Below, piece by piece: positions 41,735 through 43,020 of a DNA stretch of 44,244 bases. This stretch comes from a virus (lineage: Duplodnaviria; Heunggongvirae; Uroviricota; Caudoviricetes). Under the pieces are notes generated by a model. The model made no database searches. It saw only the letters and a list, made by a program, of their open reading frames with translations, and was not told where the DNA came from. The stretch lies in IMG/VR virus record IMGVR_UViG_2896595138_000007, positions 1 to 44,244 of that record; one strand, given 5' to 3'. The translations under genes and the position numbers were made by a program. Every line of letters begins with the position of its first letter. Positions within the stretch are counted from its first letter, which is position 1.

Positions 41735-42015
41735 TATGTATTAGCTTAGATGTGAGCTGACACATCTATGATTAGATGCCAAACCTAATCTGAGCGTCCA
41801 CTCTTTACCAAGAGCGGACGTTACCAATGACCATATGACATGAATCGATAAGATCAAAACATTATCGCCAAGAAATGTCATACCATTGATACAAATAAAA
41901 TTGATTACCCCTTACTCTTGTTGAAAAGTTAGTCGTAGAGTACCTATCGCAATGTAATCAGCTTTAATCATCTGAAAATTACTCCTTAAAAATTAGCTTT
42001 TATATACTGAACAAA

Positions 42016-42735
42016 TTAAATCTCTGTTTCTTTTCCTGTTCGGCTCAACCAATACTCCATTGTTTGAGTATGAATCTTTTCAGCGTATATTTTATCAATT
42101 AATTTATCTCGTTTTTCTTTAATGACTTTACGCAGTGAATCATATAACATAAAAAAACGTTCATCATCTTCCTCATTATTACCGTAATTTATTTGATTGA
42201 GTTCTGAAAAAATATGATAGCACCTTTTTTTTCTTGGTCCCCGGCAATATTAAAACCAAGCCACATTGATCATATTCAAATTCACCTTTATGGGCAGCAA
42301 AGTTATGTCTAACATTCATAATAGAATCATGTAAATCTCTGTATTTTTCTGGCACATGCTTTCTCTGCAATGTGAATCGACGCCCTTTTGCCTCTGTAAA
42401 ACACTTACCGTAAGTAACAACTTTTGATATAAATAAAGACTTTAATATTAGATTCTTTTCTAAATCAGGATAAATAAAGTGTTGTTCTCTATTAATGTTA
42501 TTACAAATGTTTTTATTATATTCTCCCAACCAATAACATTCCGAAGATCTTTATCCAGCAACTGTAAGGCCACATATTGTTCTACAAAGCGGCCTTTTAA
42601 AGGTATTCGTGGTAATATTACACCTTTCTGCTTATAAACTCTTTCTATCGTATTATCTGGATATTGGATCTTCCTTATTTCTATTCCGTCTTCTTCTGAT
42701 ACCCTTACTAATGGTTCATTTTTTAACTTTGACAT
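42016..42735 (-). CDS. AT-rich cargo gene between integrase and AlpA/Xis; possible HEPN-type (Abi_2-like) abortive-infection protein; two apparent frame breaks at A-runs
   Basis: ORFs 42460..42735 and 42179..42529 plus an open third frame to 42016 join into about 240 aa if A5 (42510-42514) is A6 and A8 (42225-42232) is A7. Contains RHNFAAH, an Rx5H motif. Confidence 0.35.
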
Positions 42736-43020
42736 GTTAACCCTCTTAAATAAAAAACTAACTTTATCCAGATAGTGTCCGTTAAGAAGTTTTCGTTACA
42801 ACTAAGTTTCTAGGTAAATCATGAATCAACCTATAGTATCAAAAACATTTGGTGGTAAACATCTGCATTTATCAAATAGCAGGAGCGATTTAGGGGCATA
42901 GGGATAGTGATGATATCTATACCCGTGCCCTCTTATGTCAACACAATGGCGTAAACTTAACGCTCACATCTCGCTCAAAGTGTGCTAGGAGATTTGGTTA
43001 TGTTCAGGTGATACAAACCG

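Follow-up and report, generated by a model that had tools for sequence, protein, structure and literature searches.

The AT-rich interval between the excisionase-like gene and the integrase of this prophage carries an exchangeable accessory gene, and this cargo is best read as a candidate for solo HEPN-like abortive infection, with an inactive gene in the sequence given for the window (by which we mean the whole stretch of 44,244 nucleotides analysed here). It is nearly certain that the locus holds accessory cargo of a defence hotspot. To the full model, in which the encoded protein is a HEPN-type RNase acting in phage defence, we assign a probability of roughly 0.55; its RNase activity, its trigger and its anti-phage phenotype are proposed by analogy. 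The locus itself is new and unannotated, and it belongs to a known kind, that of single-gene HEPN-like abortive-infection candidates in prophage hotspots.

The cargo gene and its frame breaks

The window is a lambdoid E. coli prophage of the Glaedevirus/phage 2H10 type. The 6 kb at its integrase end show 98.8% identity to Escherichia phage 2H10 (Glaedevirus), and yjjG adjoins the same prophage end in complete E. coli genomes. The AT-rich insert of about 1.3 kb that had been described beside the integrase is borne out by the GC profile and by the ORF boundaries: GC content is 0.30-0.35 across the interval 41735-43020 (0.302 in 42001-42500 and 0.350 in 42501-43000), against about 0.5 in most of the window, and the interval ends exactly at the stop codons of an excisionase-like HTH gene on the left and of a tyrosine integrase on the right. 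The HTH gene is annotated as an excisionase in phage 2H10 (we refer to it as xis and to the integrase gene as int), and the integrase lies upstream of the cargo gene and is co-directional with it. The main elements of the region are the following:

41540-41734, plus strand: excisionase-like HTH gene (64 aa), the conserved left edge of the variable slot, converging on the cargo gene
42016-42735, minus strand: cargo gene for a 239-aa HEPN-like protein (WP_000040219.1; gp29 of phage 2H10), split into three ORF fragments
42736-42892, minus strand: 157 nt upstream of the ORF, including the ribosome-binding site AAGAGGG, moving with the ORF between different prophage backbones
43021-44244, minus strand: tyrosine integrase (407 aa; Arm-DNA-bind_3 and Phage_integrase), the conserved right edge of the slot

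The original prediction held that the locus encodes a single gene of some 240 aa whose frame breaks at two A-runs, and this is indeed the case. The three minus-strand ORFs at 42460-42735 (91 aa), 42179-42529 (116 aa) and 42016-42150 (44 aa) are fragments of one gene, and when one T is removed and one T is added they join into a 239-aa protein that is 100% identical to WP_000040219.1. The sole substitution in the gene, at 42389, is synonymous. To place the breaks we compared the window with 70 E. coli genomes, phage 2H10 and 11 IMG/VR prophages, which gave these positions:

42509-42513, minus strand: T5 run (A5 on the coding strand), T6 in intact relatives; the first frame break, after codon 75
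42290-42310, minus strand: codons of RHNFAAH (R143-x5-H149), out of frame with the start codon as written
42225-42232, minus strand: T8 run (A8 on the coding strand), T7 in intact relatives; the second frame break
41907-41910, intergenic: C4 run, C5 in all relatives; the third window-specific homopolymer difference

The T5 variant was found in this window alone, and the A8 variant is common to the window and one IMG/VR record (L052), in which the other two indels are absent. Translation from the ATG as written gives 75 native residues followed by 16 out-of-frame residues. The middle third of the gene, with the conserved motif, is out of frame, and beyond the T8 run the last ~65 codons are read in the original frame again. 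As written in the window, the gene cannot make the 239-aa protein. Elsewhere the gene is found whole. At least 80% of the locus was matched in 70 of 5,426 complete E. coli genomes, the gene is present in 71 of them (~1.3%), and an intact 720-bp ORF, annotated as ‘hypothetical protein’, was seen in each of four annotated examples that we looked at, namely three E. coli genomes and phage 2H10, as well as in 11 of 12 IMG/VR prophages, where it encodes WP_000040219.1 or near-identical variants.

The window allele is thus either a very recent inactivation or the product of homopolymer miscalls. One could argue that both frame breaks are sequencing or assembly errors and that the strain really carries an intact gene, and we give this the same odds as a real pseudogene of very recent origin. 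Each of the three indels specific to the window affects one base in a homopolymer run of at least 4-8, the complete identity of the repaired protein to the common allele and the single synonymous change come with no other sign of decay, and a -1 and a +1 that cancel each other would be odd for a decaying gene. Besides, the locus contains five of the seven runs of six or more bases found in a 6.1-kb near-identical stretch, so that miscalls are expected to concentrate there. However, the A8 variant recurs in L052, an independent record, the flanking 4.9 kb carry zero window-specific indels, and a toxic HEPN gene would be a plausible target of inactivating slips. As the gene in the window is either dead or mis-sequenced, the phenotype of the host can be inferred from the window only together with a read check.

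The slot between xis and int and the contexts of the family

To define how variable the slot is, we surveyed 80 IMG/VR prophage loci with integrases at least 97% identical, and found both flanks in 79 of them. The proposal of an integrase-proximal cargo hotspot was strongly confirmed: with near-identical integrases, the slot DNA of these 79 loci falls into 18 unrelated, alternative alleles of 1.08-4.24 kb, mostly AT-rich. Both xis and int are conserved whatever the cargo, and the cargo gene is therefore not needed for recombination. The cargos seen in the slot include:

Dsr1 (named in RefSeq), 16 loci
the cargo gene of the window, 12 loci, the second commonest
BovA, 7 loci
dGTPase, 5 loci
a DUF4365 nuclease-like protein, 3 loci
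AbiU/AIPR, 2 loci
an HNH protein, 2 loci
PDC-S59, 1 locus
a Septu-like PDC-M01A/B pair, 1 locus
a HEPN/RES-NTD1 protein with an Mrr nuclease (Pfam), 1 locus

Eight of the 18 alleles match PADLOC models of defence or candidate defence, some of them weakly (Dsr1, BovA, dGTPase, AbiU/AIPR, PDC-S59, PDC-M01, the HNH protein and a restriction-endonuclease-like protein). The ten others are without defence annotation, and eight of these together with the cargo gene of the window gave zero matches to PADLOC or Pfam models. We found no earlier description of the xis-int slot in a non-exhaustive search of the literature. It resembles the P4 psu-int, P2 gpA-gpQ and K139-type cI-int hotspots (PMC9122126), in which conserved flanks likewise surround interchangeable, defence-enriched cargos, but it differs from them in lying between the xis and int genes of a lambdoid, yjjG-integrating E. 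coli prophage.

Homologues of the protein occur in similar company on other backbones. In P2/186-like prophages of Enterobacter, Yersinia and Citrobacter, homologues with 37-42% identity lie directly after the integrase gene, at the prophage-host junction. They are co-directional with int, and either overlap its stop by 17-20 nt or start 35 nt after it. The two genes could be co-transcribed. A Psychromonas member sits between int and the S24 repressor gene of a K139-like prophage, a type of site noted as a hotspot by Rousset et al. (PMC9122126), beside genes for HEPN_AbiV, TIR and ion-channel proteins. A Vibrio member neighbours TacAT and CBASS, and a Photobacterium member is a single-gene cassette of a chromosomal integron with attC-like repeats on both sides. 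Finally, in Cronobacter-type prophages the gene is found downstream of umuDC, and the segment that these prophages have in common with the window (42008-42892) corresponds to the ORF plus 157 nt upstream. No second conserved ORF was found in the slot, nor an adjacent MNT or antitoxin gene. Taken together, the integron cassette, the solo gene after integrases and the shared segment indicate a one-gene module that has its own upstream region and no partner.

Since the 157 nt travel with the ORF between backbones, we presume that they are the gene's own regulatory region. A scan for promoters and terminators found neither a consensus sigma-70 promoter nor a terminator on the gene strand near the gene, and the intergenic DNA gave zero matches in Rfam.

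According to these results, context is the strongest evidence on function, yet it is guilt by association. One could also argue that the gene is a moron unrelated to defence, with a role in host physiology, prophage maintenance or the regulation of integration and excision, and that the slot is merely a permissive site. The ten slot alleles without defence annotation would fit such a view, as would a distant Pseudomonas homologue that lies among ordinary chromosomal genes and the fact that no phenotype is known for the family in the literature searched. Nevertheless, at least eight of the cargos that share this slot are recognised by the PADLOC models mentioned above, some weakly, and the P2-like int-att junction, the K139-type hotspot, the integron cassette and the CBASS/TacAT neighbourhood repeatedly pair the family with defence genes. 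We regard a role outside defence as improbable, and a defence candidate is the reading that we keep.

Two further features had been reported in the DNA upstream of the gene, an imperfect hairpin and a 7-bp inverted repeat. Both exist, but their placement was wrong: the gene is on the minus strand, and they therefore lie downstream (3') of it and do not form part of its upstream regulatory DNA. The hairpin is the following:

41794-41821, no strand assigned: hairpin GCGTCCACTCTT-TACC-AAGAGCGGACGT, ~195 nt beyond the 3' end of the gene and 60 nt beyond that of xis

It has a stem of 11-12 bp and a loop of 4 nt, and its single A.C mismatch on the plus strand becomes a G.U pair on the minus strand, so that the minus-strand RNA is fully paired. 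It resembles the GTCCGC..GCGGAC-type hairpins that flank the slot in other cargo alleles. A hairpin of this type follows the int stop codon in most alleles, with compensatory variants in the stem, and some alleles also bear one on the xis side. None of the slot hairpins, that at 41794-41821 included, has a U-tract. They may serve as insulators between the convergent int-cargo and xis transcripts, as RNA-stability elements or as recombination boundaries. We discarded the inverted repeat ATGACAT/ATGTCAT (41835-41841 and 41875-41881) as a feature: chance alone accounts for such a repeat in 1.3 kb of AT-rich DNA, and a 6-bp deletion partly removes it in intact alleles.

The protein family, its motif and its predicted fold

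The repaired protein belongs to a family that is still without a model in Pfam, NCBIfam or PADLOC. Its only match in the libraries was phrog_8440 (PHROG 8440, function unknown). Close homologues form 25 clusters at 90% identity, mostly from Enterobacterales, and the 67 proteins retrieved by a large homologue search at E≤10 are all without Pfam domains. An exhaustive profile search over 1.84 billion cluster representatives (50% identity level) retrieved 925 representatives at E≤1e-3, 399 of them at E≤1e-10. All members among the matches listed are single-domain proteins of ~230-250 aa. The family is found mainly in Gammaproteobacteria, with few members in Alpha- and Betaproteobacteria; the named ones (from Vibrio, Photobacterium, Psychromonas, Alteromonadaceae, Pantoea, Pseudomonas, Achromobacter and an alphaproteobacterial MAG) all bear the name ‘hypothetical protein’ and lack any precomputed Pfam domain. 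We found no experimental study of any member in the literature searched.

The original prediction had singled out RHNFAAH as an Rx4-6H-type motif, and it turned out to be the most conserved feature of the family. Over 181 full-length members, R143 is present in 181 and H149 in 180, and the position after the arginine is occupied by H in 112 members, by N in 66 and by D in 3. Five further positions are constant or nearly so: Y109 and R119 (181/181 each), H136 (180/181), D63 (179/181) and K111 (K in 169, R in 12). In a 124-member alignment, R143 is likewise invariant and H149 is at least 90% conserved. Judged from these alignments, the family signature is R-[HND]-x-[FY]-x-A-H-x-G, with RHNFAAH at its core. 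In proteins of the HEPN superfamily, the arginine of an Rx4-6H motif is followed by a polar residue (N, D or H); their four helices form an up-down bundle, the motif sits where helix 3 ends, and inserts between helices 2 and 3 are frequent (PMC3710099). The R143-x5-H149 spacing and the N, D or H found at position 144 across the 181 members agree with the motif part of this description.

For the fold, we modelled two members with AlphaFold2, the E. coli protein (pLDDT 86.8) and a Vibrio member that is 23% identical to it (pLDDT 90.0). Both models have the same topology, with an N-terminal three-stranded sheet, four long helices, a loop that joins helices 2 and 3 and a beta-hairpin insert before helix 4. 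In the E. coli protein the predicted helices span residues 49-79, 92-111, 130-148 and 188-221, with a helix 2-3 loop at 112-129, an N-terminal beta-sheet domain at about residues 9-36 and the beta-hairpin insert at 157-180. In both models the motif (143-149 in the E. coli protein) lies at the C-terminal end of helix 3. The structure prediction that had been proposed for the joined protein thus puts the motif at the position typical of HEPN proteins (PMC3710099).

Searches with the models were compatible with a HEPN fold, and did not separate it from generic four-helix bundles; unrelated bundles scored equally well or better in both searches. Four structures ranked as follows:

5yep_B: rank 9 with Model 1, rank 15 with Model 2
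3jrt_A (an integron-cassette HEPN): rank 10 with Model 1, rank 17 with Model 2
1ylm_B: rank 23 with Model 1, rank 26 with Model 2
8xdj_A: outside the top 60 with Model 1, rank 57 with Model 2

Foldseek gave no significant match against the PDB, and two family alignments used as profiles against PDB sequences produced chance matches only.

The original prediction had named the lack of any HEPN or Abi profile hit on the corrected protein as an outcome that would refute it, and at E≤10 the corrected protein had zero matches in Pfam, PADLOC and NCBIfam, which by that standard is a refutation. The assignment to Abi_2 (AbiD/AbiF) that it had favoured was not supported: this profile gave no match to the E. 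coli protein at E≤10, and it is absent among the 25 families listed for 124 members. Among these members, the Pfam family most often matched was HEPN_AbiU2 (PF18734), with six of the 124 and a best E-value of 0.0022, all of them sub-threshold, and family subgroup consensus sequences searched against Pfam added only two more sub-threshold AbiU2 matches. The two scores inspected, 15.2 bits for one member (P0155) and 11 bits for a subgroup consensus, are below the gathering score of this family (26.8 bits). The two sub-threshold alignments that were inspected both span the H..R[HN]xxxAH segment. We conclude that the protein is HEPN-like by motif and predicted topology and, from these profile matches, that it is possibly a distant relative of AbiU2.

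A different reading of the same data is that the gene is indeed prophage defence or exclusion cargo, but that its product is not a HEPN RNase and the Rx5H match is convergent. The helical bundle with its conserved Y, K, R, H, R and H would then serve some other chemistry or act in binding (related to nucleotides or NAD, for instance), or it would sense and sequester a phage protein. Against this, R and H are invariant at the Rx5H spacing, only H, N or D ever follows R, the motif falls at the end of helix 3 in the predicted structures, and the only recurrent Pfam signal is that of a HEPN family. We consider a convergent match unlikely, though less so than a role outside defence, and a HEPN-type protein is the reading we carry forward.

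A proposed mechanism and its relation to known systems

In the model we propose, the cargo of the slot is a self-contained module consisting of 157 nt of upstream DNA and the gene for the 239-aa protein. If it behaves like known solo HEPN proteins of phage defence, the lysogen would produce the protein in an inactive state. A component of an infecting phage would then activate it, possibly through the N-terminal domain, and the active protein would cleave RNA independently of metal by means of R143 and H149, probably helped by H144, H136, D63, Y109, K111 and R119. Cleavage of RNA would lead to growth arrest and an aborted infection, as in solo HEPN proteins such as Tha.

Among known systems, HEPN_AbiU2 (PF18734; AbiU2 of the Lactococcus AbiU locus) is the sole HEPN/Abi family with a recurrent profile signal, sub-threshold as it is. 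Both AbiU2 and the present family consist of small proteins, encoded in mobile defence settings and integron cassettes; they differ in that no member of our family reaches the AbiU2 gathering score and the E. coli protein has no match at all. As a precedent that supports the model by analogy, an integron cassette of V. mimicus with HEPN_AbiU2 is reported to be associated with protection against T4 and T7, although cloning and testing were possible only in combination with a second cassette (bioRxiv 10.64898/2026.03.17.712381). Abi_2 (AbiD/AbiD1/AbiF, PF07751) is a lactococcal Abi family, encoded by one gene and placed in the HEPN superfamily, with an RN..AH-type motif (PMC3710099).

Tha-1 and Tha-2 of S. 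aureus prophages are tail-activated solo HEPN RNases (PMC11087260). Tha has no detectable sequence relationship to our family. It is 301 aa long with an Rx4H motif (RNSIMH), and its control depends on ith, an inhibitor gene that overlaps it in antisense, whereas xis in the window is convergent with the cargo gene and 280 nt away. We considered a role for xis like that of Ith and rejected it, as xis does not overlap the gene and is conserved across all cargo alleles, and so is not a cargo-specific inhibitor. As for the HEPN/MNT toxins (PDB 7ae2, 5yep and 8xdj), their sequence identity to the family is only ~10%, and the family is set apart from them by an additional beta domain at the N-terminus, by the beta-hairpin insert and by the absence of an MNT partner. 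A toxin-antitoxin reading was rejected, given that a partner gene is absent, both where the gene forms an integron cassette of its own and where it stands alone behind an integrase.

A bolder interpretation would see in the family a distinct and previously unrecognised clade of single-gene anti-phage effectors, built from a beta-sheet domain, possibly a sensor, and a HEPN-like bundle, and travelling, promoter and ORF together as one module, among integron arrays and the slots next to the integrase in at least three prophage backbones that are unrelated to one another. We regard this as a long shot at present. Judging by residue conservation, the extra invariant set (D63, Y109, K111, R119 and H136 beside R143 and H149) could reflect a substrate or a chemistry unlike those of classical HEPN RNases.

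The xis-int slot appears to be a rich defence hotspot, and with ten of its 18 alleles without an assignment it could be mined for further candidates. If the prediction made here is true, a common unannotated gene of E. coli prophages would be a new single-gene abortive-infection system, and a model built for its family would let defence-annotation tools cover at least 900 clusters that currently escape them.

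A cargo hotspot between xis and int

The slot between the xis and int genes of the yjjG-integrating lambdoid prophage is a hotspot. From int stop to xis stop (41735-43020 in the window), 18 unrelated cargo alleles were found across 79 of the IMG/VR prophage loci with integrases at least 97% identical (L044-L123). Among these alleles are Dsr1, BovA, dGTPase, AbiU/AIPR, PDC-S59 and a Septu-like PDC-M01 pair.

Whatever its cargo, the slot is flanked by conserved hairpins:

Window, 41750-41769: hairpin
Window, 41794-41821: hairpin
L056-L078, L082 and others, first ~60 nt past the int stop: int-side hairpins

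The hairpin 3' of the int stop is of the type GTCCGC(T)TT-loop-AAGCGGAC, with compensatory stem variants GCCCGC/GCGGGC and CCTGCTTT/AAAGCGGG, while those adjoining xis read GGCACAGAGC..GCTCTGTGCC and AGATGTG-N6-CACATCT. A U-tract is absent from all of the slot-flanking hairpins, on the int side as well as the xis side.

Upstream of xis (~40920-41540 in the window) lies a DUF551 gene. The window and phage 2H10 have it as an intact ORF of 206 aa; in several complete E. coli genomes (L001, L002, L040 and L043) its annotation consists of two pseudogene fragments, separated by a gap inside the gene. At the other end, window positions 1-500 are strongly AT-rich (GC 0.31), unlike the adjoining tail-fibre region.

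The HEPN-like gene in the slot and elsewhere

The A7-to-A8 frameshift that interrupts the HEPN-like gene of the window (42225-42232) is also present in an independent record, L052 (IMGVR_UViG_2585427761_000023), where it leaves a truncated ORF of 185 aa and is found without the other two indels of the window. Either the tract has slipped recurrently or both records come from a common lineage.

Homologues of this gene were also located in other settings:

L004, 4989-6732: homologue region, P2/186-like prophage
L011, 4962-6708: homologue region, P2/186-like prophage
L013, 4944-6741: homologue region, P2/186-like prophage
L033, 7223-7999, with the upstream regions of L028, L030, L032 and L033: umuDC-type context
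L007 (Photobacterium sp. J15), 6001-6702: family member, one cassette of an array

Across the three P2/186-like prophages, the start of the homologue lies 17-20 nt ahead of the integrase stop codon or 35 nt beyond it, and no further phage gene separates the homologue from host DNA. Such an arrangement points to a gene that is co-transcribed with int or translationally coupled to it, at a cargo site lying between int and att. Prophages of another type (L028, L030, L032 and L033) carry the family member just 3' of an umuD-umuC-like operon and tail-fibre genes, with a TIR-domain-like protein nearby in L033; this appears to be an additional moron or defence site, situated at a prophage end. Finally, the Photobacterium cassette belongs to a chromosomal integron array (697-12152) of single genes set apart by 15-16 attC-like repeats of 85-106 nt each, the genes including DUF2726, FRG, OGG, SRA-HNH and methyltransferases.

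Individual slot alleles

Two of the alleles in the xis-int slot have the following composition:

c3 (BovA), L060 and six similar loci: two ORFs, 279 aa and 433 aa
c17, L123: two genes, a 313-aa HEPN/RES protein and a 277-aa Mrr_cat protein

Both c3 ORFs match a single 720-position PADLOC BovA profile, the first at positions 3-263 and the second at 286-715. The split may reflect a frameshifted gene or else two genuine genes. PADLOC models gave no match for 10 of the 18 slot alleles. One of these ten is c17, assigned by Pfam to HEPN/RES-NTD1+Mrr: its larger protein has HEPN/RES N-terminal domain 1 with an RNHLIH motif, and its smaller one is restriction-endonuclease-like. The ten slot alleles unmatched by PADLOC could be a source of new systems.
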